A model generated the notes under the pieces. That model ran no database searches. It saw only the letters and a list, made by a program, of their open reading frames with translations, and was not told where the DNA came from. The position numbers and the translations under genes are program-made. Positions 10,321-36,105 of a stretch of DNA of 64,000 nucleotides are shown here, one piece after another. The stretch's first letter is position 1. The number at the start of each line of letters is the position of its first letter. The DNA comes from Thermoplasmatota archaeon. Its GTDB lineage: Archaea; Thermoplasmatota; JAKEGO01. Where the stretch lies: positions 176,568 through 240,567 of the forward strand of contig JANQNK010000003.1 in the NCBI GenBank assembly GCA_028279595.1. The letters run 5' to 3'.

Positions 10321-11264
10321 TTCTCCGTTTCCGGAACGGCCAGCTCCTCATCTGGAGCCTTGAGCAGGAGCCTGAGGTCGTCCAGGAGTCCGAGGTAGAC
10401 GCCGTCGATCAGGAAAACCTTCGCCTTCTCAAGGTCGACGTAACCGTTCCGGAGGAACGGCCCGAGGAGGTCGTCGTCCTCGTTTACCGGAGATCCCGAC
10501 CCGTACTCGCTGAATGCGGGCATTACGATGGCTTCGCCGTCAGGCTTCTCACCATACCTCTTCAGGAACGGCTCCTCGGCGATCGGTGCGCGCATCCAGC
10601 AGACCTCCGACATTCGGGTACCGAGGTCGTCCCTGAACGCTACGGAAGGGTGCTGATGCCCCATTACAACGACCTTCTGTTTCGCCACCTCAGGAGTAGG
10701 ATATGAATGACCGTGGAACAGACCAACTCCCTCAATCACGATACCTGTCGCCGGATGGACCGTGATAAGTTCGGGATAGTCGGCCCAGCCCGGGACCAGT
10801 TTGGACAACGATCCGTCGTGGTTACCTGGGACAATGTGTACGGGAACGATGTCTGCGACCGCCTTGAGGAAGTTCGGGACCTCGTCGGCCTCCTGCTGCG
10901 CTATGGCCCCTATAGAGTTCTTGACATCTCCGAGAAGGACGATCTCCTCGGCGCCGGTGTCCTCCACGAGCGATTTGATTCGTCTCAGAAGTCCCTTTGT
11001 CTGGCTAGGTAAAGTGACACCTGCGTCATGGTACTCGGCCTCGATACCGACGTGGAGGTCCGCTATCACCAGGACCTTCCTCTTGCCGTCGATGAGGAGC
11101 GCAGCCTCGTCGGGCACGGGTTCTACGTTCACGAGCCACCCAAAGCGGACATGTGTAAAAAGGGTATCCCGAAGCCGAACGAACTGATAGCAGGAGCACT
11201 GGGACCGGGCGCTTAAGACCACGTTGACCTCCATGAATAACGTCCGGGCCAAGTGCTCCCTCAT
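10317..11264 (-). CDS. Metallophosphoesterase (calcineurin-like; MJ0037-type)
   Basis: Motifs VLVIADLHVG, LLGDVKN, VPGNHD and GHQHP. The true start may be internal (for example the ATG at 11234). Confidence 0.75.
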   Translation of the reverse strand: MREHLARTLFMEVNVVLSARSQCSCYQFVRLRDTLFTHVRFGWLVNVEPVPDEAALLIDGKRKVLVIADLHVGIEAEYHDAGVTLPSQTKGLLRRIKSLVEDTGAEEIVLLGDVKNSIGAIAQQEADEVPNFLKAVADIVPVHIVPGNHDGSLSKLVPGWADYPELITVHPATGIVIEGVGLFHGHSYPTPEVAKQKVVVMGHQHPSVAFRDDLGTRMSEVCWMRAPIAEEPFLKRYGEKPDGEAIVMPAFSEYGSGSPVNEDDDLLGPFLRNGYVDLEKAKVFLIDGVYLGLLDDLRLLLKAPDEELAVPETEN

Positions 11265-11320: not shown

Positions 11321-11338
11321 TGGTGGGAGCACTGGGAT
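11321..11338. repeat. Left att direct repeat (partial copy of the tRNA-Trp 3' end)
   Basis: TGGTGGGAGCACTGGGAT is identical to 20009..20026. Confidence 0.85.
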
Positions 11339-11387
11339 GAGAAGCCCACCGAGTACCTTGAGAATCTGAATCAATACGGCCAATTCA

Positions 11388-11406
11388 TTCGAGAATTGTT
11401 CTCGAA
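11388..11406. promoter_or_regulatory. Perfect palindrome (candidate operator) at the left end of the element
   Basis: TTCGAGAA-TTG-TTCTCGAA, about 50 nt upstream of the first small ORF. Confidence 0.3.
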
Positions 11407-11453
11407 CCGTCCTCCGAGGATCGGTCAAACCGCTTAGTTAGGGTTGATGTACA

Positions 11454-11582
11454 ATGGAATCGGAACTGAGTGATGAGGTTAACGAGAGGAAAGAACTAAA
11501 GAAGCACGCCGAGGACATCGAAAAGGCATTCGACTACAATCCCGAATGGAACCACCTGAAAAAGAAGAAGAAGAAGAGGTGA
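11454..11582 (+). CDS. Small basic/coiled hypothetical protein (42 aa)
   Basis: Below the ORF-track cutoff. MESELSDEVNERKELKKHAEDIEKAFDYNPEWNHLKKKKKKR. It ends 4 nt before the next ATG. Confidence 0.25.
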   Translation: MESELSDEVNERKELKKHAEDIEKAFDYNPEWNHLKKKKKKR

Positions 11583-11586
11583 ATTT

Positions 11587-11973
11587 ATGGAATCATCGGG
11601 GACTGAACTTCCTGAATTCTCTCATTTCGACGTTGCACCTCACGGCATACCCATTCGAGTTGACATTCCAAAGGACGGTGTCTATGTCGGCCGTGTTCTC
11701 GAATCGGAACTCCTTAATCCGAATAAGGAACCGGTGAACTCCGTCTTCTATCATGTGAAGATCCTCACGGTAGAGTGTGAGTGTGAACCTTCTCTTACCG
11801 TTTACGATATTCCTCGACTCCGCTGTCCAATAGACGAGCAGGAAATCGTGTCCATTGGAAACGTCCTTGTCATCAATGTATTCCTCATGAGTCAACGGAT
11901 GGTTTTGACTCCTTTATCCGAAATCAAGCAGTCATTGAACATGATCAAAGAGGTCCAGGGGGCTTTGTTTTGA
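11587..11973 (+). CDS. Hypothetical protein (element cargo)
   Basis: 128 aa. The ATG is preceded by GAGGTGA at SD distance. Preferred over the antisense ORF 11593..11895. Confidence 0.4.
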   Translation: MESSGTELPEFSHFDVAPHGIPIRVDIPKDGVYVGRVLESELLNPNKEPVNSVFYHVKILTVECECEPSLTVYDIPRLRCPIDEQEIVSIGNVLVINVFLMSQRMVLTPLSEIKQSLNMIKEVQGALF

Positions 11974-12380
11974 AGTTGTCACCTGAGGAGACGATCACTC
12001 ATACGCAAGCTGGCTCGTCACGTCTCCTTCAAGAGCGGAACGTCCCCATCGATACAGTCCTCCCCCCGGACCTCGTCCTCCTCACAGTGTTCGTTGAATG
12101 CAAGAACGGAATGGCCGTCAGAGACTATGATGTAGTAGTGACGGGTGAGGACGAAGTCTTCCGAGGTAGAACCGATAAGACCGGCCACATCGACTTCTAT
12201 GTCCCTGACGGTCAAGAGATGATGATCGTCAACGGGGATGACGTTTACGAACTGTACATGGAAGGCAACGGATATGTAACGCTTACGTCTCCGACGGACC
12301 TACCGCCGAAAAGACCACCTTCAGCGTCACTTCTCGAATCATTGCTATTGCCACAGGGTAGTCAACGTCCTTCCACTTAG
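11970..12380 (+). CDS. Hypothetical protein (element cargo)
   Basis: 136 aa. The TTG start overlaps the previous stop by 4 nt. The middle part looks beta-sandwich-like and the tail is Pro-rich. Confidence 0.35.
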   Translation: MKLSPEETITHTQAGSSRLLQERNVPIDTVLPPDLVLLTVFVECKNGMAVRDYDVVVTGEDEVFRGRTDKTGHIDFYVPDGQEMMIVNGDDVYELYMEGNGYVTLTSPTDLPPKRPPSASLLESLLLPQGSQRPST

Positions 12381-13139
12381 TGTCACGCTTTTCGCATGTC
12401 GTCCGGGGTATTGGTGATTCCGATCCTCTCTCATCTTCTCCCGGGCCCCCGGACGGCATGTATTATAAATTCGATAAGTAATTCCAATATCCCAACTGAT
12501 GAATGAGATAATACTATGACAAATGTAGAAGGATACTATTCATCTATTTTGTAATTGGTTCAGTTACGATTATAATAATTCGTATTCCCAATTGAAGGAT
12601 ATGAATAGGATCCATATTTAGTTGTTCTAATGTAGATGATGAGTTTAACCGGGAATAAGAAAATTGGTAGAGATGTACCTCACCAGTAACTAACGACATC
12701 GAAGACGATGGTATACTTGAACATTATTTTGTAACTGACAATGGTTACACATATGTTATTAAACCATATGGTGGATATATATGGAAGGTACGTACCAAGG
12801 GTAATTTCAGAGGTACTGGGTGCTTTGTTTTTTCTTGCTAGGGCATGGTAAGTTAATATTTGATAATCTGATGATGATAACAATAATTATACACCATTGA
12901 TGCAAAGAAAGGTGTTATATTATATACATTAAAACAACTGTAAGAAACTGTTCTATTAACCAATATCCATTGGAATGAATAATTAAAAATAGAAGTATAA
13001 TAAATTGGTTTCAATCCTATAGTACTGTTATGGTATTGTTTTATTATTAGAAGATGTCGCTATCTAATGTATATTTATGGTCATATACTATTTATACCTG
13101 TAAATTCGCTTCTATTTTGTTAATGAATTGAAGTGGTCA

Positions 13140-13373
13140 ATGGTCTTACGACGTGATAGTATGGGCTCTAGAAACCTAAAAAAGATTAGCGTGAAAAAGA
13201 TCAAATTTTATTCTTATTTATTGTTATATTTGATTGGATGGGTATTTTTTATCGTGGGTACAGTTCATTTAATATTGTGTTACGACCAAAAAGACTTTCG
13301 GACTCCATTTATTCTAATTATAGGTATAAATTTAATTTTCTTGAGTTTATACCATATTGACTCGGATTACTAG
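13140..13373 (+). CDS. Small two-TM membrane protein
   Basis: An ATG-started version of the track ORF. Two hydrophobic helices: YLLLYLIGWVFFIVGTVHLIL and PFILIIGINLIFLSLY. Confidence 0.3.
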   Translation: MVLRRDSMGSRNLKKISVKKIKFYSYLLLYLIGWVFFIVGTVHLILCYDQKDFRTPFILIIGINLIFLSLYHIDSDY

Positions 13374-13379
13374 TGTTAA

Positions 13380-13700
13380 CCGATAAGGCTATCCAAGTAT
13401 CGGGGCGTTGTTTTACACGTGTACCCGTCTCACACGTGTAACAACAACGTAGGCGGGAGATGAACGGTAACGTTCATCGAGGGGGCTATTCCCTATACTG
13501 TTTTTCAATTCTAACCGTAATAGGTATTGTCTCCGTGGATCTACCGTCGCACCCTCCCGTTAGGACGACAGAAGGAGGGGCGGTCTATTCTTTTCTACCT
13601 CGATCTTCTCTGTATTCTCTATGCCCCTCCCGGCGTCCGTGGGGAGGGGTGCCGACCGGGTCGCCGCAGGCGACCCCTATGAATCTAATTTAAGGTCGGC
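13380..13700. other. GC-rich, hairpin-dense non-coding patch inside AT-rich cargo (candidate structured RNA or origin/regulatory region)
   Basis: At least 5 stable stem-loops, including GATGAACG-GTAA-CGTTCATC and nested GCCGACC[GGGTCGCC-GCA-GGCGACCC]...GGTCGGC. Confidence 0.3.
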
Positions 13701-13884
13701 AGGTTGAGAGGAATTAGAATGTTTGAAAATGAAAACATTAGCTATTCCTATGAAATTCTTAAGAAAACGTCCGAAAAGGGGTTGTGAGAACTCTTTGGGG
13801 ATTTTCATTTTATAAATACTTTGGATACAATGGTCCTAAAGTTATATGTAGTATACAAGTATATACACTAAAAGTAGTGGTAAA

Positions 13885-14175
13885 ATGGGCGATTACACGA
13901 CCGTAAAGATCAGCAAGGATACTCTTCGATTAATGGACCGCGTTCAATCCTTTTTCACCTATCGTTACGGTAAGAAATTGACCAAGGATCAAGTCCTTCG
14001 TACAGCTCTTCTCAAGTTCGATTATCGACTAGCTAGTAATCTTCATCAAACGGACCTCTCTTTCAACGAATATATCAAGATGCTCGAGGACGACGTCGGC
14101 TTGTCTTCGTCCGAAGGAGAATGGAAGACCTTCAAGGGCGTGAAAGTGTGGTGCGGTCCCGTCAATAAACGTTAA
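13885..14175 (+). CDS. Ribbon-helix-helix-like small DNA-binding protein
   Basis: N-terminus TTVKISKDTLRLMDRV...KLTKDQVLRTALLKF has a beta-strand/helix/helix pattern. A TATA-like GTATATAC lies about 25 nt upstream. Confidence 0.4.
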   Translation: MGDYTTVKISKDTLRLMDRVQSFFTYRYGKKLTKDQVLRTALLKFDYRLASNLHQTDLSFNEYIKMLEDDVGLSSSEGEWKTFKGVKVWCGPVNKR

Positions 14176-14366
14176 TACTGTTTTACTGAAATTGGAGTTG
14201 GGGGTCCCCCGGTAATAACATGAGATCATTTCGGAGGTAAGTACCGGATCGGACACGGTCCCTTCGTAATTCACTGGGATTACAAATAAAAACCTACCAC
14301 GTAAAAAAATGGTCAATGGAGATATAAGGGATGGTGGACTATTTGAAAATAGCGGAGTGGTGATAT

Positions 14367-15674
14367 ATGAAGGGAATAATCACTAAATGGATTGTTATTC
14401 AAATAATCGTTTTATTAATTATTAGTTCGGTGACATATTTATACGGGAAAGAGTTGAAGAAAGAGGAAGAAGAAATAGTGGGTCGGTATAAAACTAGAAA
14501 TCCTAACGATATTATATTCGATAAGACTATGACATATACATTATATCAATCAATGATTGGTGATTTACATATTGAGAATTCTCTGGATCAATTTCCGTTT
14601 ACGCCAGAAAATGAAAATCAGACAAGATATGATAACAATAATTATACAAATTCGTTTTATGCAGATTGTCAAGTAACAACAAATTCGTCACATGTAACAG
14701 ATGAAAACTTAGTATGGATGTTTCCAGATCCATGGGATGATGGAATGCGACCCATGGGGTCGGTTCTATTAACAACATATGTGAATATTACACATGATTG
14801 TCATCTTAATGATGCGTTATTCAGTTTCTGGTTAACAGCTCGGTGTGATGATGAAGAATATAAAAATAGCCAAATCGATTTTAAAATGAAATCTTCAATA
14901 TTATTACCTGATAAATTGATGACAGATCGATTAAGAGATACTAGGGGTCGGATGATGTTTTCTCCAAATGAGACAATTCGTGTTGGAGAGCAGAAGCAAA
15001 TTATCTTTGATTTTAATTTCATAAATCCTTCGACATGGAGATTAAATACGGGTGATAAATTATTATTTCAGTTACAATATTGGATTATGAATCCAATAAT
15101 ATTAGATCCAATTCAAAACGTGTCAGAGGAAAATGTACCGGTGAAATTATTTTTAATTTATGGTGGTGTTAATCCATCTTATTATAATATTTCATTAGAA
15201 AGGGGTATTGGATTAATTCATGAGATTGATTATTCATTTAATGAACCAAACGAATATCGATATTGTTTTATTCCTCCAATTAATCATTCGATTAATAAGG
15301 TAACATTAGTTATTGAGGGATTAAATCTAGAATATATTTCTTTTTATTCCTCCTTGTCAATGAATAATGGTGATAGACTAAACAAAAGTTGGGTTTATAT
15401 TTATTTACCATATAATTACCATCCCTGTTTAACTCTTCGGTTTCAATTAGAAATGATTAATGGTGAAATTGGATCTTTTAAAACGTATCTTGATGGTGAA
15501 CCCGAACAAAGGTATGTAAGGGAAGGTAAGGAGGGAATTCATGATGATGTTATGTTTTTGTTAAATATTGTGATTCCGGTATTTTCGTCTGTAATATTAA
15601 TTCAAATAGCGTATAGATATCAAAAGAAAAAGGATTCTCAGAAGTCAGTAAAGTCAGAAAACTTTCATGATTAA
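14367..15674 (+). CDS. Membrane-anchored (N- and C-terminal TM) putative surface glycoprotein, ORFan
   Basis: 435 aa with an N-terminal hydrophobic helix, many NxS/T sequons, and a C-terminal TM (VIPVFSSVILIQIAY) followed by basic residues. Confidence 0.5.
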   Translation: MKGIITKWIVIQIIVLLIISSVTYLYGKELKKEEEEIVGRYKTRNPNDIIFDKTMTYTLYQSMIGDLHIENSLDQFPFTPENENQTRYDNNNYTNSFYADCQVTTNSSHVTDENLVWMFPDPWDDGMRPMGSVLLTTYVNITHDCHLNDALFSFWLTARCDDEEYKNSQIDFKMKSSILLPDKLMTDRLRDTRGRMMFSPNETIRVGEQKQIIFDFNFINPSTWRLNTGDKLLFQLQYWIMNPIILDPIQNVSEENVPVKLFLIYGGVNPSYYNISLERGIGLIHEIDYSFNEPNEYRYCFIPPINHSINKVTLVIEGLNLEYISFYSSLSMNNGDRLNKSWVYIYLPYNYHPCLTLRFQLEMINGEIGSFKTYLDGEPEQRYVREGKEGIHDDVMFLLNIVIPVFSSVILIQIAYRYQKKKDSQKSVKSENFHD

Positions 15675-15979
15675 TGACGAGTGACGTAGCGATATTTATG
15701 TATTGTATATCCCGCTAATGTGTTTAATGTGAAGGAAAAACCTTCGCAAACTCCTACTCTAGCGTTAAAAAACGTAAGAAAAGGGGTCATCACAACAATT
15801 GGTGTTTGAGAAATTATTTATAGAATAAACGTATAGTATAATCCATGTCAGTGAAAATGGAATTTCAGTTTGAATTATCGAAGAATATCGCTGATATTGA
15901 TCAAATATTAATGAATATTGAAGCAAGTGATGATGAATTATTCGATTTACTGTATTTATAGGTAAATGACGGTGTATTA

Positions 15980-16549
15980 ATGGCTCATAAAAGAGGTAAG
16001 GGAAAGAAGAAAGGTGGGAAGATTGAACCATTTCCTGAAGCATTAAAACGAGTTGAGGTATTAGCTCGAAGACTTAATCGAAAGGTTGAACGTGCCGTAG
16101 CAATACAGACTACTCCTGAAGAGGAAAAGGAATTCCATTCAATACTTGTTGAACATGGAAAATTTGCAATACCATTTCGTTGTGAAGGTGAAGTGGTTAT
16201 TTGTTTCATGCCTATTGGTATCGAAAAAGAAGTTAAAGAAAAATTTAAAGGAGTACCGTATGAAAAGCGGAGACGGTTATATTTTCACTTATTACGAGAT
16301 CTACAATTGAGTAACAGAGTTGGATATACAATAAAACCTCTTGGGATTAAGTTGATTGATCAAATTGATGAAGTATATTTAGAATGTAGCAGTATTATTG
16401 AGGATACGAGTGGTGAATCTGCAAATAGACTTGCAGATATTATTCAAGAAATGGTCATTATGATGTTAAAGGCTGGGAAATATTTTGGTGGTGAAGAAGA
16501 AAAAAGTGATTCGAAACCGGATACTTTTACGGTAATGTATCATCAATAA
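15980..16549 (+). CDS. Hypothetical protein with a basic N-terminus, co-oriented partner of the cyclase-like gene
   Basis: 189 aa, starting MAHKRGKGKKKGGK. It ends 15 nt before the next ATG. Confidence 0.45.
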   Translation: MAHKRGKGKKKGGKIEPFPEALKRVEVLARRLNRKVERAVAIQTTPEEEKEFHSILVEHGKFAIPFRCEGEVVICFMPIGIEKEVKEKFKGVPYEKRRRLYFHLLRDLQLSNRVGYTIKPLGIKLIDQIDEVYLECSSIIEDTSGESANRLADIIQEMVIMMLKAGKYFGGEEEKSDSKPDTFTVMYHQ

Positions 16550-16564
16550 TAGGTTGAGGATAAG

Positions 16565-17341
16565 ATGGAAAAACGGTTTGTGGCATTTTTCGATGTGTTG
16601 GGTTTTTCCGATCAAATTCAGCGGACAAGTGCAAAAAATGTGATGAAAGAGTATTCGAAATTTATTCAGGACTTATCCAAATCGGAAGGTTCGGAACTTA
16701 ATGCGTTTATTAGTTCAGATTCAATTATTGTATATACTGAGGATTTATCTGTTGAATCATTTAAATCTATAGTGGATTATTCGGGTAGGTTGTTTGTTAG
16801 AGCTTTTCGTAATCATTTTCCATTACGTGGTGCAATAGATGGTGGAGAATTCGAAATTAGTGATGATCGTCTAGTATATGTTGGTCGTGCATTAATTCGG
16901 GCATATAAAGCTGCTTCATCTCAAAAATTGTCAGGTGTGATTTTAACACCCAATTGTGAAATGGTCTTAGAATCATCGGAATATGCTGGAATTCTCGAAG
17001 GAATGGATCGATCATTGAAACTAATTCAAAGGTCAATACAGATAAAAACTTCTGGTGTCTCTGGTTCATCTGACCGTGAAGGAATTCGGTATTGTGTTAA
17101 TTGGGTACATGTTTTACACAGTGGTCGAGGCAGTCGGAAGGAACAGATGACGAAAAAGGAATTTTACTCAAAATTTGTACCAAAACGTAAGGCTGATTTT
17201 ATTTTTGAATTAGATGTTGAAGAAAAAATCGAAAATACATATGGATTTTACGATTATACATATAAAATATTATCTCAGACTCGGTTTTTACCTCGTGGTA
17301 AAAGGGAAATTTGGCGTAGAACTATCAAGAAATCAAAATAG
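16565..17341 (+). CDS. Class III nucleotidyl cyclase-like protein (remote, motif-level)
   Basis: FFDVLGFS (cf. FADIVGFT), FISSDSIIVY (cf. IGDAYMA), LRGAIDGGEF (cf. RIGIHTGPV), VGRALIRAYKAASSQKLSGVILT (cf. GDTVNLASRLES..PGQILVS). Both metal-binding Asp positions are present. Confidence 0.5.
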   Translation: MEKRFVAFFDVLGFSDQIQRTSAKNVMKEYSKFIQDLSKSEGSELNAFISSDSIIVYTEDLSVESFKSIVDYSGRLFVRAFRNHFPLRGAIDGGEFEISDDRLVYVGRALIRAYKAASSQKLSGVILTPNCEMVLESSEYAGILEGMDRSLKLIQRSIQIKTSGVSGSSDREGIRYCVNWVHVLHSGRGSRKEQMTKKEFYSKFVPKRKADFIFELDVEEKIENTYGFYDYTYKILSQTRFLPRGKREIWRRTIKKSK

Positions 17342-17525
17342 ACTGTTTTCAATGATGTATAATTGTGGTTGTATGGAATTCAATGACGCATAACTATCGA
17401 TGTGCGTCAAGATCGTTATGAATATGAGATGGGCTGATGTTTACATGTAGGTATCTGCGTTTGGTGAAATCCGAGAAAATTTTATGGATTAACGAAATTA
17501 TGAATGTGAATGTGAATATGAGGCG

Positions 17526-17924
17526 TCATAATTCCAATTTTGCTTGCGGTGATAATGGATCAGGGAATGAGTTTAGAATGAATTGGTGGAGTTTGTATGA
17601 TAAGAAAATCGTGTAACATGATGACACACCGATTACAGGTAATGTAATATAAGGATTGGATGAGAATGAAATTGCGATTGTGTTTAATGTTATTATTATT
17701 ACTCCAATTGGAAGTACGAGTAATACTTTTTTCAGTTCAGTTCGAACTGATGTTGCTACTGTGATGGCTTGAGGGGGTGTTGGTATAGATTCGAAATAGG
17801 GGCGTAGTAAATTCTTCCAATTATCTACGTATCTTACTAGACCTATGAATACTAAACCGATTAAAGCTGCTAATGATTGCGCAAATGTAGAAAGAATCCA
17901 TATTGATTGTTCTTCGGTTACCAT
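17526..17924 (-). CDS. Small multi-TM membrane protein
   Basis: 132 aa with 3-4 hydrophobic helices. Convergent with the cyclase-like gene. Confidence 0.45.
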   Translation of the reverse strand: MVTEEQSIWILSTFAQSLAALIGLVFIGLVRYVDNWKNLLRPYFESIPTPPQAITVATSVRTELKKVLLVLPIGVIIITLNTIAISFSSNPYITLPVIGVSSCYTIFLSYKLHQFILNSFPDPLSPQAKLEL

Positions 17925-17980
17925 GAATAATGAGTGGGTGACTAATGTAAAAAAGTTTGTAAAAAAATAGTCAATGCCGA

Positions 17981-18622
17981 TTATAAAAAGTTGATGTTAT
18001 CATATTTGAATGTTTCAACCCAATCCGGAAAATTTTCAAAACATTGGTGCAAATCAAAATGATAATCTTTGAAGATGTCAGAGTGAGTTTCGGGTAGTGG
18101 TAATATATTACGCATTTCAAAGACAAATAAATCTAGAGGGTAAATGTCGGTTGGGAATAAAAATCCAGGTCCTGTATTGGGTATGAAATTTCCCGCGGGA
18201 TATCGTGGAATTTCATAAAAGGGGTTAAATCTGTGGCAAATCGTGCTGATTCGTGAAGAATGAAGAAATGGATAATTTCGATTCTTATCGAGTAATCTAC
18301 ACTGGTTGAGTAATTCCTCAAGATCGTGTATTCTATTCGGAATCTCATTATGATTTGCGTATTTAATGAATGATTTTAGGTATAATTCAATACATTGTTG
18401 AGCTTCAAAAAAACTGTAGGGATAAATGTGGTGATAGAACAGGATTCGGGATAAGAAATAATGAAGGTCTGCTGAAGAAATGAAAATGGTGTAACTCATG
18501 TTTTTAAGTTTGGTGTCGAAATCAGGATCTTTAATACGTTTCGATATGTTAACAAATTCTTTATTTTTTAAAGTTGTTAGTTCGTCTACGTACATCTTTA
18601 CATCATCTAATAGTGATTTCAT
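17981..18622 (-). CDS. HEPN domain protein (classical PF05168-like)
   Basis: AQQCIELYLKSFIKYANHNEIPNRIHDLEELL matches the HEPN helix pair (A.Q..EK.LKA....HDL..L). FYEIPRYPAGNF matches the conserved YYIPTRYP motif. Confidence 0.65.
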   Translation of the reverse strand: MKSLLDDVKMYVDELTTLKNKEFVNISKRIKDPDFDTKLKNMSYTIFISSADLHYFLSRILFYHHIYPYSFFEAQQCIELYLKSFIKYANHNEIPNRIHDLEELLNQCRLLDKNRNYPFLHSSRISTICHRFNPFYEIPRYPAGNFIPNTGPGFLFPTDIYPLDLFVFEMRNILPLPETHSDIFKDYHFDLHQCFENFPDWVETFKYDNINFL

Positions 18623-18716
18623 TATTCATCGGTATAATGGAGTAACATTGTATAAAAATGTGTAATAAAAATGGTTAATGTGCACTATATATGTGGAGAT
18701 ATGTGGTGAATTGTGA

Positions 18717-18887
18717 CTAGGGGGGTAGTGGTTTGTAGCGGTCTTCAAGGATATTTAGATAATATCTTGTTGCCTCTTTGATGATATCTGCTCTGTTGTT
18801 GTAACCAGCATCTGGATAGTCTGAAAGGAAGTTGTCAATTCGGTTAAGTAGGTTGTTTGGTAAACTAACAGAAGTATGTCGGGGCAT
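18717..18887 (-). CDS. Ribbon-helix-helix (CopG/Arc-like) protein, 56 aa
   Basis: Below the track cutoff. MPRHTSVSLPNNLLNRIDNFLSDYPDAGYNNRADIIKEATRYYLNILEDRYKPLPP. Divergent from the integrase across a 100-bp TATA-rich spacer. Confidence 0.55.
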   Translation of the reverse strand: MPRHTSVSLPNNLLNRIDNFLSDYPDAGYNNRADIIKEATRYYLNILEDRYKPLPP

Positions 18888-18987
18888 GTCTCAAAATGGG
18901 TCTAAGAACTATATAAAACATGTAAATATTTAAATGGAAATATGGCTGTAGATATATTTATATATGCATATTTGTATTGTGGTGTAG

Positions 18988-19971
18988 ATGCCCACCGATG
19001 TGGAGGTCGTGAAAACATCTGAAATTTCCGTGTTAGAGCGCTGGATACAGGAGATGCGAGCTCGGAACGTAGGCGATTATACAATTAAGCGATATCGTGC
19101 GGTTATCGAGCCATCACTTTCCTTCGCCTTGGATGAGGGTTATCCTGACCCTATTGATTGGGATATCATTCAAGTTGGATCAATTCTTGATGGTATAGGT
19201 CGCAACTCCTGGAAGATCCGTGTGATGAAGCTGTTCTTAAAGTGGGTCGGGAACGACGTCCTTGTGAAGAACAGGATACTTCATCCGAAGCATCAACATC
19301 TTGGTCGATGGCTAAATCAGAACGATTGTCAAAAGCTTGTTACTCTTGCCCAAACCCCACTTGAACGAGTCGTCATCCACTTTATGATGGAGTTGGGACT
19401 ACGACGAACTGATCTCTTACGTCTACGTGTGTTAGATATCGATTTCAGTTGCTCCCGCGTTAACGTACGAGGTAAAGGCTTTCATGACGGCAAGCTACGT
19501 GTTCTCCCATTCCATCCTTGTTCACAAGAGGTAATCCGGTCATATCTCGAATACCGCGAATACGTTTTCCAAGTTGCACGTCAACGAAGTATTACTCAAC
19601 CCGAGGATCCTGAAAATCTCCTCGTATACGAAAGAGGCGGAGAAGTCATAGGATACAAGAGCACCGCCATCGATAATCTCATTCAACGACTAGCGTCACG
19701 TCTAGGATTTCATTTCAGTTCTCACGATCTTCGGAGAACCTTCGGTCGCAACCTTTACTATGCGACAAATCGTGATATCGCAGTAGTTTCTTACGCTCTC
19801 GGTCATAGTGATATCCGGACCACGATGAAGTACCTGGGTCTAGGATATGATGACCTTCAAAAAGGCATGGTAGACATGGCGAAGATGTGGGAATCGCAAC
19901 CACATATTGCCGCCGAAGTGGTACTAAAACGGCGAAATGGAGGACCTAGCAATGAACCCAATTCAGGCTGA
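18988..19971 (+). CDS. int: Tyrosine recombinase / integrase (XerC/D-like phage integrase family)
   Basis: Catalytic signature residues in LRRTDLLRLRV (R), HDLRRTFG (H-x-x-R) and LGHSDIRTTMKY (H...Y). The stop lies 38 nt from the right att repeat. Confidence 0.85.
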   Translation: MPTDVEVVKTSEISVLERWIQEMRARNVGDYTIKRYRAVIEPSLSFALDEGYPDPIDWDIIQVGSILDGIGRNSWKIRVMKLFLKWVGNDVLVKNRILHPKHQHLGRWLNQNDCQKLVTLAQTPLERVVIHFMMELGLRRTDLLRLRVLDIDFSCSRVNVRGKGFHDGKLRVLPFHPCSQEVIRSYLEYREYVFQVARQRSITQPEDPENLLVYERGGEVIGYKSTAIDNLIQRLASRLGFHFSSHDLRRTFGRNLYYATNRDIAVVSYALGHSDIRTTMKYLGLGYDDLQKGMVDMAKMWESQPHIAAEVVLKRRNGGPSNEPNSG

Positions 19972-20008
19972 AACAACTGAAAAACCCCGCAAAAGCGGGG
20001 AAAACGAC

Positions 20009-20026
20009 TGGTGGGAGCACTGGGAT
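20009..20026. repeat. Right att direct repeat (within the tRNA-Trp 3' end)
   Basis: TGGTGGGAGCACTGGGAT. Its reverse complement ATCCCAGTGCTCCCACCA covers part of the T-stem, the acceptor 3' strand, the discriminator and CCA. Confidence 0.85.
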
Positions 20027-20069
20027 TCGAACCCAGATCAGCGGGTTTCGCCTATCAGGCAAAGTGGCT

Positions 20070-20133
20070 TTGGGGTCGTTGCTCCAGTTAGTCATCACGA
20101 CATCAGCAAACCCGTTGCAACTCATTTCCCCAA
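20070..20133 (-). ncRNA. Box C/D guide RNA module embedded in the tRNA-Trp intron
   Basis: Terminal stem TTGGGG/CCCCAA. Canonical internal CTGA (D') and GTGATGA (C'); degenerate AAUGAGU (C) and ACGA (D). The guides CGGGTTT and ACTGGAGC are complementary to positions 38-42 and 31-37 of the same tRNA. Confidence 0.55.
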
Positions 20134-20390: not shown

Positions 20391-20480
20391 GTTGATAGGT
20401 TGGTTCAGTCTCTCAAAAGTGTGTTGGTATGTACCTTTCAATGTGGGAACGTGTATATATCCAAAATCACATTCCGTGGT

Positions 20481-21638
20481 ATGAAGATATGGGTGGCCAC
20501 CTTAGTTTTCATATTAGTGCTCAGTGGATATGGGGCGCGAGCATCTTTACCGGTTCAACAGCTTGAAGTCAGTAATGTGTATAGGACTGCAAATCCTGAT
20601 GTATTCAATGATACGATCGTCTGGGAAAGAGATGATCCTTGGCATGACCGCATAATTCAATCATACGATATTCGGTCTAACACCAAATCTATCGTAACCA
20701 ATCAAACCAGATTCTATTCGAACAATCTTAGCTGTGACCTTAGAGGAAAAGCACGTAATCCCACTGCACTCGAAGATGCGATCATATGGCAGGATGAAAT
20801 ATTCTATGATTGGTCACAGACGATCGATGGGATTGTATATTTGAATCTTACTAATGGACAGCTGTCATTAGTATCAAATGCAACGGAATATTCCGTCAAT
20901 CCAGACGCTTATGGAGACATCATCGCATGGGAATCAGGCTGGGATCAGAAGAATATCACATATCATCATATCTCAACTAACGAAACCATTAAAATCGATA
21001 GAAAATACAACCAAATCACACCGCAGGTGTATCAGAATTATCTTGTCTGGAATGAATATGATGGGGTCCCCTCTGTCGGTTGGACTAGGATCTACGTGAA
21101 GAATTTAATCACAAGCGAAATCGTCCAAGTAGGTGGAGATGGTGTAAAGTCCCCCTCCATTTATGGTGACAAAATTGTCTACGAGCATTGGGTATTTCCA
21201 GATGATGAAGGTGATGAACTCATTCGAGACATATACATGCATAATCTAACAAGTGGAATTACAATCCCCATCTGCACCGATCCTGGTGATCAATTGATCC
21301 CTAAGATCTATGAGGATCAAATTGTTTGGATTGACAATAATGATGGCGGATACCATATCGTATCTCACAATTTACAAACCGATGAAACTCTTAAGGTATG
21401 TACAGATCCCGAATTCGATCGGTACCATGTCGACATTCATGGAAATGTAGTCGTATGGAGCGGTCATAATGAGGACGAATCAAGGTTGTTTTATTCGAAT
21501 CTTTCATGGGAGCCGATTCCCGATCCGCGAATAATCGAAACTATCGATAATGGATCCATAACCTCTGAAGTGATCATTGGATCATTGATTGTGCTGGGTA
21601 TCATCGGACTTGTAGGTTTATGGAAGCAAAAGTCCTGA
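20481..21638 (+). CDS. Secreted, C-terminally anchored 7-bladed beta-propeller repeat protein (TolB/PD40-like)
   Basis: Signal peptide MKIWVATLVFILVLSGYGARA. Seven repeats of the type P.(I/V)(Y/F)(G/E)D.IVW...D(I/R)Y..NL.T. C-terminal TM VIIGSLIVLGIIGLVGLWKQK. Low GC. Confidence 0.6.
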   Translation: MKIWVATLVFILVLSGYGARASLPVQQLEVSNVYRTANPDVFNDTIVWERDDPWHDRIIQSYDIRSNTKSIVTNQTRFYSNNLSCDLRGKARNPTALEDAIIWQDEIFYDWSQTIDGIVYLNLTNGQLSLVSNATEYSVNPDAYGDIIAWESGWDQKNITYHHISTNETIKIDRKYNQITPQVYQNYLVWNEYDGVPSVGWTRIYVKNLITSEIVQVGGDGVKSPSIYGDKIVYEHWVFPDDEGDELIRDIYMHNLTSGITIPICTDPGDQLIPKIYEDQIVWIDNNDGGYHIVSHNLQTDETLKVCTDPEFDRYHVDIHGNVVVWSGHNEDESRLFYSNLSWEPIPDPRIIETIDNGSITSEVIIGSLIVLGIIGLVGLWKQKS

Positions 21639-22745: not shown

Positions 22746-24257
22746 TCACTCTCCCTCCTTTGCCATGTGGACCGTCGTCTGCGGGAACGGTATGTCGATG
22801 CCCGCCTTCTCGAACCTGTCGTGGACCTCGGTGTTCAGATAGTCGTCCACTGACCACCTGTTGTCCCTGTCGTCCAGCCAGACGATGACCTTGAACATTA
22901 TCGCGGAGTCACCCAGATCGCTGAACCGGATCACGGGCTGGAGGTCCGGATCGTCCTTCAGGATGTGCTCGTTCGCGTCGATTATCTCCTTCAGGATGGC
23001 CTTCACCTGGCGTGTGTCGGAATCATAGCCCACTCCGATGTTCTTGGAGATCTTGCCGGGATCGTCCGCATTGTCGAAGAGCGCGATGATGTCGGACCCG
23101 ATCTTGTTGTTCGGTATCGTGACCATCGCCGCGTCCGAGTATCGATACAGACGGGTCGACCTCAGCCCGATCTTCCTGACCTGGTACCAGGTGTCGTTCC
23201 CGAGGATGATGTTGTCACCCTTCTTGAAGGGCCTGTCCGTGAGGATGAAGATCCCGCTGAAGAAGTTCGATAGGGTCTCCTGCGCGGCGAAGGCGATGAC
23301 CATGCTGATCACCACCCCTCCTGCCACGAAGAGGGTGAGATCGATCCCGAGGTGACTGAGAAGTGCTCCCAGCGCTATGATCCCGATGATCACAACACCG
23401 ATCTTCTCTATCAATGGGATTAGCATGTCGTCGAGGTCCGTCGCGGTCTTGCGGGACATGATGTGTCCGTAGAACACCACGACCTCCTTGAAGATCTTGT
23501 ATGCCATGTAGAATATTATTATCGTGAACACGAGGTAGTAGATCTGATCGAACAGTGAGATCAACCATCCCGGTATGATGTGGTCGATCACCCTCAGGGA
23601 GACGATCGCACCATAGAGGAACAGGAGCACGATGATCGGCGTGTGCACGATGGCAAGGACCCTGTCGTCGAGCTTGTTCTTGGATTTCTTCGTCCAGTGC
23701 TTCACGACCGGGTCCATGGTGATCACTGCGAGGAACGAGATACCCAGCCAGAGGAGGACGTTCATGACGAAGATGCCGTAGGCGTTGTCAAGCGGCGGAC
23801 CGAAGGGATTCTCCCAGATCCCGAAGACGAGGTCAGTGTCCACGTCGGGTTTGGGTTCGTCAATGGTGATCACGACCTTGTGTTCCGAGTACTTGACCGG
23901 TGATCCGTTCTGGTAGACCATGAACTCGACGCTGATGCGTTCCCTGCCCTCTGCATCCGTTGGGACCACAACTGTGAGCGTGAAGGTGCGTGCATCCGAA
24001 TAGGGAAGGAACGTGGTCATCGGTGACATGGATATGTTCCATCCGCCGATCTCCGATATCGTAACGTTCACGGTGAAGTTCATCTCGAGCTCATCGACGT
24101 TCCTCAGCGTCCAGATGAACTCGTACGTGTCCCCCTTGTTGACATCCCGTTCGTAACCGTCGATCTCGATGATGTCGACGGTCTCCGCACCTACGGCAGG
24201 CGCGAGGAGTATCGTCAGGACTGCGAGAATGACTATCGCTAGCTGCTGTCGCATCAT
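22746..24257 (-). CDS. Mechanosensitive ion channel (MscS family) with an N-terminal extracellular Ig-like domain
   Basis: Signal peptide, about 150-aa beta domain, TM helices, then the MscS core ETLSNFFSGIFILTDRPFKKGDNIILG...VRKIGLRSTRL...VTIPNNKI. Confidence 0.8.
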   Translation of the reverse strand: MMRQQLAIVILAVLTILLAPAVGAETVDIIEIDGYERDVNKGDTYEFIWTLRNVDELEMNFTVNVTISEIGGWNISMSPMTTFLPYSDARTFTLTVVVPTDAEGRERISVEFMVYQNGSPVKYSEHKVVITIDEPKPDVDTDLVFGIWENPFGPPLDNAYGIFVMNVLLWLGISFLAVITMDPVVKHWTKKSKNKLDDRVLAIVHTPIIVLLFLYGAIVSLRVIDHIIPGWLISLFDQIYYLVFTIIIFYMAYKIFKEVVVFYGHIMSRKTATDLDDMLIPLIEKIGVVIIGIIALGALLSHLGIDLTLFVAGGVVISMVIAFAAQETLSNFFSGIFILTDRPFKKGDNIILGNDTWYQVRKIGLRSTRLYRYSDAAMVTIPNNKIGSDIIALFDNADDPGKISKNIGVGYDSDTRQVKAILKEIIDANEHILKDDPDLQPVIRFSDLGDSAIMFKVIVWLDDRDNRWSVDDYLNTEVHDRFEKAGIDIPFPQTTVHMAKEGE

Positions 24258-25223: not shown

Positions 25224-27077
25224 TCACCTTCTCCGGCGGAATACCGCGAACAGAGCGATCGTGGATACGACCGTCAACATGAGGGTGAACTCGGGCACCT
25301 TCTCGGGTGCATCATTATCCGTCATGTTTCCGAGCGGGTATCTATCCTCGGCGCTCCCGGCCCCGTCGATCGGATACGTTCCGGTGCCGTTCCAGTCCGA
25401 CCAGTAGTTACCCTCGCTGTCATCGTCGTCCCAGAGGTTCGTGGACGAGCTGTCTGCACCCTGGGAGCCGGTGCCTCCGTTGTTCACGATGTTGTTGTGG
25501 TGGATGCTCATATCCGAACAGGACGACAGTTCGATACCGTAGGCGTTGTTGTTGAATATCTCGTTCCATGCGATGGTGCCGTTGTCCGACGAGTAAAGGT
25601 AGATCCCTTGGGCGCTCCCCTCGTAGACCGAATTGTTTGTGATGGTCAGTCTGGACGTTGAAGCCGCTCCGTAGATCCCCTGGTCCGTGTTGTCATCGAA
25701 GTCATTGCCGGATATGGTGCAATCCTCGATGCCCGTCATCATGCGGACACCGTTGTCCGAGTTCTGGCGGAGGGTGTTGTTCGTGATCGTGGTGTTGTGG
25801 CTGTTCTGGTGCACGTAGATGCCATCGCTCCACGAGTTGTTGATCGTGTTGTTGTGTATCAACGACATGTACGAATCCCTGACCCAGATCCCGTCTCCAG
25901 TTCCCCACATGATATGGGAGTCCTGGATCGTGGTGTACTCGCACCAGAAGTACACATAGATCGATGTGATCCCGTTCTTCGTGAAGGTGCATCCCTCGAT
26001 CAGTGTGTAATGCGACCTGAAATATAGGACGATACCGCGCAGACCGTCCCTTATCGTACAGTTCCTTATCACGGTGGACATTGCCCACTCGGTCTCGATG
26101 TTGCTGCTCCCGCCTCCGCTGATGTAACTGTCCGCCACCGTGCAGTTCTCCGAGGTCTGGATGAAGATCCCCCGGTAAACGCCCTTGAACGTCCCGTTCG
26201 TGACATTGATCCAATCGCACTGGTGCATGGATATGGCCGTGTCCGTGTTCTCCGTCGAGAACCCATCGAGATCGATGTCCGCACAGTTCGCAAGTATCAC
26301 CATACCGACGCTGGTCGGAACGGAAACGTCGCTCGAGTTCGTCAGATAGTAGACGGGCAATCCGTTTACATCGGTGTTCTCGAACCAGTGCGTTGTCGTC
26401 CTGGCCTCCAACGAACCATCCAGGGACGGGCTGTCGTAGTTGAATGTGGTATCGGTGAAGTTGACGAGTGTCGTCGAATCGATGCTGAATCCGAATCGCG
26501 AGTTGTTCTCGAAGGTGCAATCGTTCACCCGCGCCCTGTTCACCTGGAACAGACTGACCCCATTCCATGAGTTGTTGTGTATGTAACAGTTGGTGAGCTT
26601 GAGGCGGTCAGCGTTGTAATAACGTATCCCATCAGTGGAACCGGTTATCACCGTATCGATTATCTCGAGGTCATCGTAGTCATCGTCGTAAATTCCGTGG
26701 GTCCAAATACCCGATCCGTTCCCTACGATCGTGAACCCCTTGATGGTGACCTCGTCCGAGATGACGTTGACCGCATAGTCGTTCCCCGGACCCTCGATCA
26801 GCACGAGGTCCGAGCCGTTCCCCTTCATCCAGATATTGTTGTCGATATCGATGCTCTCGTAGTAATTACCCTCGTAGACCCTGATCCTCTTCTGCCCGAC
26901 GGAGGCGTTGGACCCGGTGGCGTCGATGGCCTCCTGGATCGTTCCGTAATCGGCCCAGGTCCCGTTGTCGTCATCCACGATTATCTGTCCCTCGGCCTCC
27001 CCTGTCACCAGAACGAGACCGGCGAACAGCAGGAATCCGAAGCATAGCAGTATCAGTATCCTCTTGTAACCCCACAT
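25224..27077 (-). CDS. Right-handed parallel beta-helix (PbH1/NosD-like) surface protein with PEF-CTERM
   Basis: Signal/TM N-terminus and many N-x-I/V-x-N beta-helix rungs. C-terminus: APEKVPEFTLMLTVVSTIALFAVFRRRR. Confidence 0.7.
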   Translation of the reverse strand: MWGYKRILILLCFGFLLFAGLVLVTGEAEGQIIVDDDNGTWADYGTIQEAIDATGSNASVGQKRIRVYEGNYYESIDIDNNIWMKGNGSDLVLIEGPGNDYAVNVISDEVTIKGFTIVGNGSGIWTHGIYDDDYDDLEIIDTVITGSTDGIRYYNADRLKLTNCYIHNNSWNGVSLFQVNRARVNDCTFENNSRFGFSIDSTTLVNFTDTTFNYDSPSLDGSLEARTTTHWFENTDVNGLPVYYLTNSSDVSVPTSVGMVILANCADIDLDGFSTENTDTAISMHQCDWINVTNGTFKGVYRGIFIQTSENCTVADSYISGGGSSNIETEWAMSTVIRNCTIRDGLRGIVLYFRSHYTLIEGCTFTKNGITSIYVYFWCEYTTIQDSHIMWGTGDGIWVRDSYMSLIHNNTINNSWSDGIYVHQNSHNTTITNNTLRQNSDNGVRMMTGIEDCTISGNDFDDNTDQGIYGAASTSRLTITNNSVYEGSAQGIYLYSSDNGTIAWNEIFNNNAYGIELSSCSDMSIHHNNIVNNGGTGSQGADSSSTNLWDDDDSEGNYWSDWNGTGTYPIDGAGSAEDRYPLGNMTDNDAPEKVPEFTLMLTVVSTIALFAVFRRRR

Positions 27078-31072: not shown

Positions 31073-32560
31073 CTAGGGCGGCTGTACGGATCCCCTCGGT
31101 CCAGTCTCGGGCATGTCGGGGACCATCGGCAGGGCGATAGTGACCTTGGTCCCTTCGTCCACGGCGCTCTCTATCGAGAGCCGTCCGTAGTTACGCTCGA
31201 CCATGTCCCTGACCATCGCGAGACCGCTGCTGGTCGGATCCTCCGCGCTGGTGGCATAGGGGTCCAGTGCGCTCCTCAGCTTCTCGCTGGATATCCCGGA
31301 ACCCTCGTCAGAGATCATCACCTTCAGGTAGGAGCCCTCCGGAAGCTCCATCTTGACCCTCTCGATCTCCTCGAGGTCCTTGAGCTGTATGGATATTGAA
31401 CCACCCCCCTCCATCGCCTCGATGGCATTGTCCACCAGGGTTATCAGGGTCGACTGCAGATCGACGGCGCTCGCGTACACCCGGTACTCCCCTGGGTCGG
31501 CCTCGAATGATATCTGCACGTTGTCCGGCAGTCCCATCCTCATCATCTTGACCGTACCCTTCATGAGGATCAGGAGACTGTGCTCCGATGCTGACTCCGA
31601 GGTCATTCCCGTGACGTCGAGGACCTGGTTCACGAGCCTCGAGCATCGCTTGCCTCCGGTGTATATCTCACGTAGCCACTCACGCATCTCCTCGTCCTCG
31701 AGCTTGGTGTAAACGAGCTGTGAGGCGCCGATGATCATGTTGAGGATGTTGTTGACCTCGTGGGCAAGGCCCATTCCCATTGCGGACATCGCGTCGAGCT
31801 TCTGGGCCCTCCGGGCCTCCTTCTCGAGGACCCGGTGTTCGGTGACGTCCTGTGCAAGCCCCATGATCGAAGGCTCGCCGTGGTATGTAACGCCTGTCGT
31901 CGTGATCTTGACCATCCTGTACCCCTCGCGGGTCTTCATGCGGATCTCGGAGTTGGGTGTCTCGCCCTTGACCGCCCGCTCGTACAGGTCCTGCATCTTC
32001 TCCCTGTCGGCCGAGTGGATGGTGTCGGTGAAGTAGAGGCCTTCGAGCTCGGACCTGTCGGTCTCGAGGATCCGTTCCATGCTCTGGTTGGCATAGCGGA
32101 ACTTGCCCTTCTGGAGCATGAAGATGCCGGAGGGATTGTGCTCGGCGAGGGTCCTGTAGACCTCCTCGCTGGCTTTCAGCCTCGCCTCCATCTTGTGCCT
32201 GTAGAGGGCCATCTGTATGGTGGTGTGGAGCTCCCGTCCCTCGAAGGGCTTCAGAAGATATCCGTAGGGGCTGGTCTCCCTCGCCTTCTCGACGGTTGCG
32301 TTGTCGGAATAGGCGGTCAGGTAGACTATCGGGATGTCGACCTTGGAACGTATCTCACCCGCGGTCGCGAACCCGTCCATCTCCCCCTTGAGCTTGATGT
32401 CCATCAGGATGATGTCAGGTCTGTCGGACAACGCGGTGTCGACGGCGAGGGCGCCGCTGGACGATATTCCGGTGACCTCGTAACCCATGTTGATGAGGCT
32501 CCGCTTGATGTCCTCTGCGACGATCCTCTCGTCCTCGACGATCATTACCCTGGTTTCCAT
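31073..32560 (-). CDS. Hybrid sensor: receiver + PAS + HisKA/HATPase histidine kinase
   Basis: REC (MIVEDE...IILMDIKL...KPF), PAS, H-box LAHEVNNILN, ATPase G-boxes (DEGSGI; SSGLAMV). Confidence 0.8.
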   Translation of the reverse strand: METRVMIVEDERIVAEDIKRSLINMGYEVTGISSSGALAVDTALSDRPDIILMDIKLKGEMDGFATAGEIRSKVDIPIVYLTAYSDNATVEKARETSPYGYLLKPFEGRELHTTIQMALYRHKMEARLKASEEVYRTLAEHNPSGIFMLQKGKFRYANQSMERILETDRSELEGLYFTDTIHSADREKMQDLYERAVKGETPNSEIRMKTREGYRMVKITTTGVTYHGEPSIMGLAQDVTEHRVLEKEARRAQKLDAMSAMGMGLAHEVNNILNMIIGASQLVYTKLEDEEMREWLREIYTGGKRCSRLVNQVLDVTGMTSESASEHSLLILMKGTVKMMRMGLPDNVQISFEADPGEYRVYASAVDLQSTLITLVDNAIEAMEGGGSISIQLKDLEEIERVKMELPEGSYLKVMISDEGSGISSEKLRSALDPYATSAEDPTSSGLAMVRDMVERNYGRLSIESAVDEGTKVTIALPMVPDMPETGPRGSVQPP

Positions 32561-32633
32561 CCACTCACCGGTCGATATTCATGGTTAGACCGCGATACTA
32601 TCGATTGCCCCGCATCTGATCTCTGCTGCTTCC

Positions 32634-33326: not shown

Positions 33327-33363
33327 CTTCCACACACTCCGTCAAACCGTTATCCGTTCCTTC

Positions 33364-35621: not shown

Positions 35622-36105
35622 CTCCGTCACCGCGCGGGAGCTTCACCAGCGTGAGCCAGAAGTTCTCGATCGATTTCACGACCTCCATGAACTGTCCGAG
35701 ATCCACCGGCTTCGTGATGTAGCAGTTTGCATGATGATCGTACGTGTTCAGGATGTCCTCCTCCGCCTTCGATGTCGTGAGGATGACCACGGGGATCAGC
35801 TTGAGGTCGTCGTCCGCCTTGACCTCCGCCAGGACCTCCCTGCCGTCCTTCTTCGGAAGGTTCAGGTCGAGAAGGACGATGTCGGGACGGGGCTTCTCTG
35901 CGTACTTCCCCTCCTTCCTGAGGTACTCCATGGCCTTCTGTCCGTCGTCAACGACGTTCAGATTGGTGCGCACCTTCCCATCCTTGAACGCCTCCAAGGT
36001 GAGGCGCGCGTCCCCGGGATTGTCCTCCACAAGCAATATCTCAACGGTCTCTCCCATCTTGTTCACTGCCATCATCTCTCCCTCGAAGCTCTCTCCATCC
36101 ATCAT
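35614..36105 (-). CDS. Stand-alone receiver (Rcp1-like single-domain response regulator)
   Basis: [13 protein letters not shown]...[13 protein letters not shown]...ILTTS...ANCYITKP...ENFWL. Overlaps both neighbouring genes. Confidence 0.8.

Follow-up and report, generated by a model that had tools for sequence, protein, structure and literature searches.

We analysed a 64,000-nucleotide (nt) stretch of contig JANQNK010000003.1 from a Thermoplasmatota archaeon, hereafter the window, in which a 258-amino-acid (aa) protein is encoded on a small island of foreign composition (Table 1). We find that this protein has, in very divergent form, the class III nucleotidyl-cyclase fold, also called the palm or cyclase homology domain (CHD) fold, and is one of a widespread and so far uncharacterised family of proteins of ~240 aa (PHROG 23933). 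Its gene is cargo of an element of ~8.7 kb with a low content of guanine and cytosine (GC), which has inserted into the genome of a Thermoplasmata-like archaeon at a tRNA-like site. The explanation that we favour, with somewhat more confidence than doubt, is a composite one, in which the protein is a stand-alone enzyme that uses two metals and a nucleoside triphosphate (NTP), acting as a single-gene conflict or defence factor and representing a solitary, mobile family. A preliminary description of this DNA had instead placed the gene in a three-gene module, a variant of the Pycsar antiviral systems, together with an upstream ORFan and a facing membrane protein. This trio is a chance juxtaposition.

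Fold and metal centre of the 258-aa protein

Library scans with the single sequence were blind to this protein: no match at E <= 1 was obtained in Pfam, NCBIfam or PADLOC, and a phmmer search of the PDB gave nothing meaningful. Only a profile of the family, hhalign and a structure model proved informative. A collection of 5.8 billion proteins yielded 55 homologues, mostly of ~240 aa, and in an alignment of 38 homologues the residues D10, S51-D52-S53-I54 and R88-G89 are invariant. The AlphaFold2 (AF2) model built from this 38-member alignment has a predicted local distance difference test (pLDDT) score of 86.8 and a predicted template-modelling (pTM) score of 0.86. When this model was compared with the PDB by Foldseek, the best 50 matches were exclusively class III adenylyl and guanylyl cyclase domains, with E down to 2e-7, a probability of 1.00 and target-normalised template-modelling scores of 0.6-0.69 over ~190-200 columns. 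These matches include the human soluble guanylyl cyclase (sGC, 2wz1), CyaC of Spirulina (1wc3), Rv1900c of Mycobacterium tuberculosis (1ybt) and Ma1120 (5d0h), and the top matches among the viral models of BFVD are also cyclase-domain proteins.

The same relationship emerged from profiles. We built a reference profile from four plasmid-encoded, annotated class III cyclase domains, one of them CyaB of Pseudomonas aeruginosa, and against it hhalign aligned the family at 86% probability (E 4.7e-6) over 140 columns and with the blocks in register; among PDB sequences, the family profile matched CyaB (3r5g) alone, weakly (E 1.1) and with the same motifs aligned. Hence the structure and profile checks, which could have pointed to a non-cyclase fold, both returned the class III cyclase fold. 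The family shares this palm/CHD fold with domains such as 1wc3, 2wz1, 1ybt and 3r5g over ~190-200 positions and in the same order of motifs, although the 258-aa protein is only 9-18% identical to class III cyclases and the family misses their curated model, PF00211 (neither the window protein nor any of the 38 members matched it at E <= 1, and NCBIfam gave no match either).

The preliminary description had recognised four cyclase blocks, FFDVLGFS, SSDSIIVY, LRGAIDGGEF and VGRALIRAYKAAS..SGVILT, in the correct order, together with both metal-binding Asp residues. The order holds and both Asp residues are present. As mapped by hhalign, D10 corresponds to the first metal Asp (F-x-D-I-x-G-F) and D52 to the second, in the G-D of the beta2-beta3 hairpin, whereas R88-G89 falls on the phosphate-contacting Arg-Gly of beta4 (I-R-x-G-I-N-T-G) and the block VGRALIRAYKAAS on the helix G-x-x-V-N-x-A-x-R-x-E. 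Conservation was counted over 124 family sequences, with non-gap residues as denominators. D10 is kept in 121/122 and D52 in 121/123, so the metal-binding residues are conserved in the homologues, as a genuine cyclase relative had been expected to show; S51 is present in 122 sequences, S53 in 116 (Thr in a further 7), R88 in 108 (Lys in 16), G89 in 124/124 and G94 in 122/124. Like the metal-binding Asp pair, the beta4 Arg-Gly is thus a feature that class III cyclases and this family have in common. The resemblance of the blocks is not due to chance, because the hhalign match, the fifty class III-only Foldseek matches and the near-invariant Asp pair all speak for it.

Other residues that class III cyclases possess are absent from the family. 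The position of the transition-state Asn (111) is occupied by V, T or I, with I in the window copy, and that of the transition-state Arg (115) is variable, with K in the window copy; the fourth block therefore has its place in the order and lacks both of its catalytic residues. Position 48, the counterpart of the purine-specifying Lys (D-K-x-x-G-D), is variable as well and carries hydrophobic residues; in class III cyclases the base is specified by Lys/Asp for ATP and by Glu/Cys for GTP. Since the canonical Asn, Arg and Lys are not conserved, the synthesis of a canonical cyclic nucleoside monophosphate (cNMP) is uncertain. In fold and metal centre the protein is like a class III cyclase, but it lacks three of the sequence features that define these enzymes and misses their curated model.

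The fold reaches ~residue 180 by way of a beta-hairpin with a conserved Y-x-[VI]-P-x-K, and K161 is probably the equivalent of the Lys in the K-G of cyclase beta7. Because the cyclase fold extends this far, the family-specific C-terminal part measures ~78 residues and not the ~100 first reported, although it is basic as had been said. This extension is helical, contains 20 Lys and Arg vs 10 Asp and Glu, and is conserved in the family at F204, K209, K221, N224 and T225, with the motif F..H.K...KIENT ('KIENT'). No sensor or regulatory domain accompanies the cyclase-like part, and this tail of its own, together with a mobile and solitary way of life, further sets the family apart from class III cyclases.

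Existing names say little about the family. The 258-aa protein matches phrog_23933 at 5e-8, which PHROGs labels 'unknown function', and UniRef automatically names some members 'Guanylate cyclase domain-containing protein'; otherwise, databases list the family only as hypothetical protein. Our literature searches found no paper describing the family.

Mobile DNA and genomic contexts of the family

The assignment of the gene to the cargo of an element was borne out. The GC content is 26-35% across ~12.6-19 kb of the window vs ~58% in the remainder, and a tyrosine integrase gene stands at the end of this compositional island. A repeat search of the window revealed an exact 18-nt direct repeat, TGGTGGGAGCACTGGGAT, with one copy on the integrase side and the other to the left (11321-11338 and 20009-20026). 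As these two putative attachment (att) sites bound the low-GC island, the element measures ~8.7 kb (11321-20026). On the minus strand, the repeat reads as a tRNA-like 3' end, ..ATCCCAGTGCTCCCACCA, and the remnant that contains the right copy folds with an acceptor stem, a GAU anticodon-like arm, a T arm and CCA, and without a D arm; neither ARAGORN nor Rfam called a tRNA at the att site. A third, partial copy of the repeat lies at 11186-11204, 133 nt from the left att, which suggests repeated integration at the same site. Regarding the host, the closest named relatives of the flanking EtfA gene are found in Thermoplasmata metagenome-assembled genomes, with identity up to 80%. No DNA-level relatives of the element were found among deposited phages and plasmids.

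Mobility is also apparent in the distribution of the family. A genome scan returned 187 relatives, of which 80 loci were kept, spanning Bacteroidota, Bacillota, Verrucomicrobiota, Planctomycetota, Pseudomonadota, Nitrospirota and two archaeal metagenome-assembled genomes; further relatives lie on IMG/VR viral contigs (14), in a phage record (1) and on plasmids (2). We searched for a conserved partner by BLAST clustering of flanking open reading frames (ORFs), Pfam and PADLOC, and only type I restriction-modification (R-M) recurs. In five Firmicutes loci (L011, L016, L018, L066 and L068), the genes are arranged on one strand as hsdM-hsdS-cyclase-like-(X)-hsdR, with gaps of tens of nt (for example, L018 5087-12038). 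In L066 and L068, an extra, unannotated gene for a 501-aa protein is also present between hsdS and hsdR, besides the cyclase-like gene.

This is a known slot. The prr locus of Escherichia coli, which encodes the PrrC anticodon nuclease, has the order hsdM-hsdS-prrC-hsdR, and the five Firmicutes copies are packed between hsdS and hsdR in the same way. By analogy, this suggests the logic of a latent effector guarded by the R-M complex. In contrast to this likeness, the fold and chemistry of PrrC are unrelated to those of the family, and the R-M context is missing from most family members and from the window, where Pfam and PADLOC scans detected no R-M genes on the element.

Other conflict systems also occur near homologues. 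One homologue adjoins a type IV restriction enzyme of the PLD-helicase-DUF3427 type; another adjoins Shedu SduA, with HEPN_AbiV two genes away and SIR2+DUF87 close by; a third adjoins an AAA_21 ATPase; and in a Methanobacteriota locus a STAND-TPR protein is encoded two genes upstream of the homologue. Moreover, plasmid p536 of Bacillus wiedmannii (NZ_CP036072.1; L101 6419-7732) encodes a 438-aa protein in which a GmrSD_N (DUF262) domain (E 8.7e-7) is fused in frame, N-terminally, to a cyclase-like module. This module occupies the place that the DUF1524 nuclease has in GmrSD enzymes. Taken together, the contexts are those of a solitary, horizontally mobile gene whose association with conflict systems is suggestive and not rigorously quantified. 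Its carriers, in travelling alone from genome to genome, are integrative elements, prophages, plasmids and defence islands.

To our knowledge, the cyclase-fold immune enzymes described so far (Pycsar, Pucsar, Cas10 and mCpol) are signal generators wired to a dedicated effector. The present family differs from them: its metal centre is kept, the other part of the catalytic set is lost, no effector is linked to it, and it occupies classic defence slots. If its members are active, they would represent either a new product chemistry or a nucleotide-based defence that operates with no effector, and the window would add one of the few archaeal cyclase-fold conflict genes.

Possible functions

The composite reading introduced above starts from what was observed, namely the fold, the conserved D10, D52, R/K88, G89 and G94, the lost canonical residues, the tail, the solitary gene and the conflict contexts; from these we infer dimerisation, catalysis, the nature of the product, the role in defence and the role of the tail. 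The protein would form a head-to-tail homodimer like other class III enzymes, whose active sites lie at the dimer interface and convert an NTP into a cNMP and pyrophosphate, and would use its two metals to attack an NTP, either as a nucleotide cyclase or as a related nucleotidyltransferase. The missing catalytic and specificity residues may be replaced by family-specific ones, possibly contributed by the KIENT helix, so that the substrate or the product may be non-canonical; the basic helical tail would regulate the active site or complete it. As a one-gene conflict factor, the enzyme could produce a toxic nucleotide, drain the NTP pool, or send a signal to a receptor encoded elsewhere. In some Firmicutes, the R-M complex may guard it.

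Several points weigh against this reading. The family does not conserve the transition-state Asn/Arg pair or the Lys that specifies the base (positions 111, 115 and 48), and the window copy, which itself deviates at four strongly conserved positions (E117A, W122L, Y156R and P159Q), could be decaying. The analysis brought up no effector or receptor. The contexts were taken from 80 of the 187 genome relatives with a crude ORF caller, and many homologue loci have purely housekeeping neighbours (TGT, SHMT, TrkA, RluD-like and PolA). Finally, PADLOC matched 232 model families among proximal genes vs 72 among distal ones, a comparison of per-model counts that carries no rigorous enrichment statistic.

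A stricter version of the same idea can be proposed tentatively, although we regard it as unlikely. It holds that the family is a single-gene antiviral system of bacteria and archaea, in which the enzyme is its own sensor and effector and has a non-canonical site. Its members would be recognised by a phrog_23933-like signature, FFDILGF / SDSII / PLRGAI..G / KIENT. The active site would perhaps be completed by the C-terminal K221 and N224, the product would be a toxic or chain-terminating nucleotide, or else the NTP pool would be drained, and in some lineages a type I R-M complex would restrain the enzyme, as happens with PrrC.

It is rather unlikely that the palm domain is catalytically dead or repurposed, serving as a sensor or regulator that binds a nucleotide or nucleic acid and makes no product. 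The family-wide lack of the transition-state Asn and Arg and of the base-specifying residues fits such a role, as do the basic C-terminal tail and the loss of four conserved residues in the window copy. However, the Asp pair, the flanking Ser residues, R/K88, G89 and G94 are kept near-absolutely across phyla, as expected for an active two-metal centre, and dead paralogues usually lose the residues of the metal centre first.

We consider it improbable that the protein is an ordinary physiological cyclase, producing cyclic AMP or cyclic GMP for signalling and present on the island by chance. The class III fold, the guanylate cyclase labels in UniRef and the many housekeeping neighbourhoods would suit it, but 0/38 members match PF00211 and the purine-specifying and transition-state residues are missing. 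Nor does the protein have input domains for sensing or regulation. In GC content the gene is foreign to its host, and the family has a patchy distribution, its members being found on mobile elements, on prophages and plasmids, and within R-M operons.

Pycsar and Pucsar systems combine a PycC or PucC cyclase with a CNBD-TIR or a three-transmembrane (3TM) pJV1-spdB3 effector in a conserved unit of two genes, and their cyclases make cCMP, cUMP or cGMP in response to infection. The three-gene module of the preliminary description would be a relative of these, in which the 258-aa protein makes a cNMP on infection, a 132-aa membrane protein (TM132) is the effector and the 189-aa ORFan is a sensor or regulator. 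This is now very improbable. Its starting observations were accurate: the three ORFs lie at the positions and on the strands first assigned to them, with a 15-nt gap between the first two, a Lys/Gly-rich N-terminus on the 189-aa protein and the 132-aa gene convergent; the cyclase fold and the metal-binding Asp residues are real; and the three genes share one mobile element. With Pycsar and Pucsar the family has in common a stand-alone protein of class III cyclase-like fold, carriage on mobile DNA and defence contexts, and in the window a small transmembrane (TM) protein happens to lie nearby. Pycsar-type cyclases are reported to pair often with small 3TM pJV1-spdB3 proteins as their TM effectors (bioRxiv 10.64898/2026.08.12.744502), so that a small TM protein beside a stand-alone cyclase would not in itself be far-fetched, and we therefore tested at the level of the family whether TM neighbours are enriched. 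They are not: small proteins (<=300 aa) with at least two TM segments make up 6/179 immediate neighbours vs 31/432 distal genes.

The further tests went the same way. In a tblastn search of every element gene against 104 fetched loci, none was found beside any homologue, so the three genes do not occur together elsewhere, the outcome that had been set down beforehand as speaking against the module. The ORFan has no homologue among 5.8 billion proteins, and TM132 has no PADLOC or Pfam match, lies convergent to the 258-aa gene, follows a HEPN gene of its own strand after 56 nt, and has homologues whose loci (two of three examined) carry no cyclase-like gene beside them. Domains for cNMP binding and TIR domains are missing from the 25 Pfam families that occur most often in 147 immediate neighbours, and a Pfam scan of the window neighbours revealed neither, in line with the earlier remark that no cNMP-binding domain was recognisable there. 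When the window protein and five relatives were scanned with the PycC models of PADLOC, there were 0 matches at E <= 1, whereas four ordinary cyclase domains, used as a positive control, each matched 7-13 PycC models, down to 1.5e-31. Thus the family differs from Pycsar and Pucsar in lying outside the PycC models and in having no conserved effector gene, and TM132, which is unrelated to the PADLOC effector models and belongs to another transcription unit, was rejected as a Pycsar-type effector for want of a PADLOC match, of co-occurrence and of TM-neighbour enrichment. The module is largely refuted by the absence of co-occurrence. From the signalling or defence role first proposed, the conflict and defence contexts of the family survive and the linked signalling module does not.

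A comparison with Panoptes leads to a similar end. In that system, the minimal Cas10-palm cyclase mCpol operates with a 2TM-beta or CARF-TM effector, and a minimal palm-domain protein of ~200-250 aa in a conflict setting, together with small membrane effectors, is reminiscent of it. Nevertheless, the structural neighbours of the 258-aa protein are class III cyclases and not Cas10 or GGDEF proteins, the mCpol model of Pfam matched neither the window protein nor the 38 members, an SDS motif takes the place of GGDD, and the family has no conserved TM partner. By every testable criterion, the family belongs to neither Pycsar/Pucsar nor Panoptes.

That the cyclase-fold protein signals to a HEPN RNase, as Cas10 does to Csm6/Csx1 in type III CRISPR, is hardly credible: a 213-aa HEPN protein (HEPN213) with an Rx5H motif is encoded 640 nt away on the same element and HEPN_AbiV occurs at one homologue locus, but HEPN213 has no recognisable nucleotide-sensor domain, lies on the opposite strand behind an RHH-like gene of its own and has no relative beside other family members, so that it was rejected as a cyclase-controlled RNase for lack of both a sensor domain and co-occurrence.

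Other genes of the element and the flanking DNA

The features of the locus are collected in Table 1. The gap between the ORFan and the 258-aa gene (16550..16564) contains a GAGG Shine-Dalgarno-like motif, and the two genes are probably co-transcribed. The ORFan is specific to the element and is no conserved partner of the cyclase-like family: among 5.8e9 proteins it found only itself, it had no match in Pfam, NCBIfam, PHROG or PADLOC, and its single-sequence AF2 model (pLDDT 44) was unusable for a fold search.

Table 1. Features of the element and of the 258-aa protein, in window coordinates
Feature	Position	Strand	Basis or remark
Left putative att copy, 18 nt, TGGTGGGAGCACTGGGAT	11321..11338	repeat	3' end of tRNA-like sequence, minus strand
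189-aa ORFan, Lys/Gly-rich N-terminus MAHKRGKGKKKGGK	15980..16549	+	self-match only
Cyclase-fold protein, 258 aa	16565..17341	+	AF2/Foldseek, hhalign, family conservation, phrog_23933
Cyclase-homology core, residues ~1-180	16565-17104	+	AF2 model, extent of the fold
Codon of D10	16592-16594	+	
Codon of D52	16718-16720	+	
Codon of R88	16826-16828	+	
Codon of K161	17045-17047	+	
Conserved basic helical C-terminal extension, residues 181-258	17105-17338	+	family alignment, composition
Membrane protein TM132, 132 aa	17526..17924	-	hydropathy scan
HEPN-domain protein HEPN213, 213 aa	17981..18622	-	PF05168, E 4.3e-11, over gathering score
Possible ribbon-helix-helix protein RHH56, 56 aa	18717..18887	-	weak RHH_1 (E 0.046) and HicB-like (E 0.26), both sub-threshold
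Tyrosine recombinase (integrase) of the element	18988..19971	+	PF00589, E 6.2e-19
tRNA-like remnant with the right att copy (20009-20026) as its 3' 18 nt	20009..20085	-	sequence and fold; adjoins the integrase

The HEPN gene, directly upstream of the TM132 gene and on the same strand, had been overlooked in the preliminary description. From 18887 to 17526, the minus strand encodes RHH56, HEPN213 and TM132 in succession, with gaps of 94 nt and 56 nt, and TM132 belongs with HEPN213 in a transcription unit separate from that of the 258-aa gene, with which it converges across 184 nt. TM132 was first credited with 3-4 TM helices; a simple hydropathy scan gives two clear ones and perhaps a third. 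Its homologues amount to three small proteins among 1.8e9 representatives, and at the two homologue loci examined there was no HEPN gene either. HEPN213 carries the Rx5H motif RISTICH at residues 124-130 (motif scan), which makes it a candidate RNase toxin; a Pfam scan recognised neither CARF nor SAVED nor any other nucleotide-sensor domain in it, an MNT partner is absent, and a phmmer search of the PDB was uninformative. Judging from its weak sequence matches, RHH56 is a candidate antitoxin or regulator. The run as a whole resembles separate cargo of the same element, of a toxin-antitoxin or abortive-infection type.

Two compositional features of the element were also observed. A GC-rich (~50%) patch at 13395-13700 (+), within a part of the island with 29-35% GC, has a minimum free energy of -126 kcal/mol (z = -5.07; 0/100 shuffles equally good) and forms long perfect hairpins; it matched no Rfam family, and its possible identities are a structured non-coding RNA and an origin-like region of the element. 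Furthermore, across 12600-19000 the plus strand shows a G>C skew of 0.16-0.47 per 400 nt throughout the island, whichever strand codes, so that the sense strand of the minus-strand genes at 17526-18887 is rich in C. The skew points to replication or mutation that affects the two strands of the element unequally, for example through a single-stranded stage. Upstream of the ORFan, 14367-15674 (+) encodes a 435-aa protein that begins with a signal or TM segment and ends in a TM anchor.

Just beyond the right att, within a stretch of 40-50% GC that may be the remnant of another insertion, 20400-21638 (+) encodes a 412-aa protein that likewise starts with a signal or TM segment and has a TM anchor at its C-terminus, and that carries Methanosarcina-type beta-propeller repeats (TIGR04275, 5e-22). 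Among the ORFs scanned in the host flank, one encodes an MscS-like channel (22746-24257), another a NosD-like beta-helix protein (25224-27077) and several, on the minus strand, PAS-domain histidine kinases and response-regulator hybrids (31073-39185, 53506-55044 and 62742-63917).

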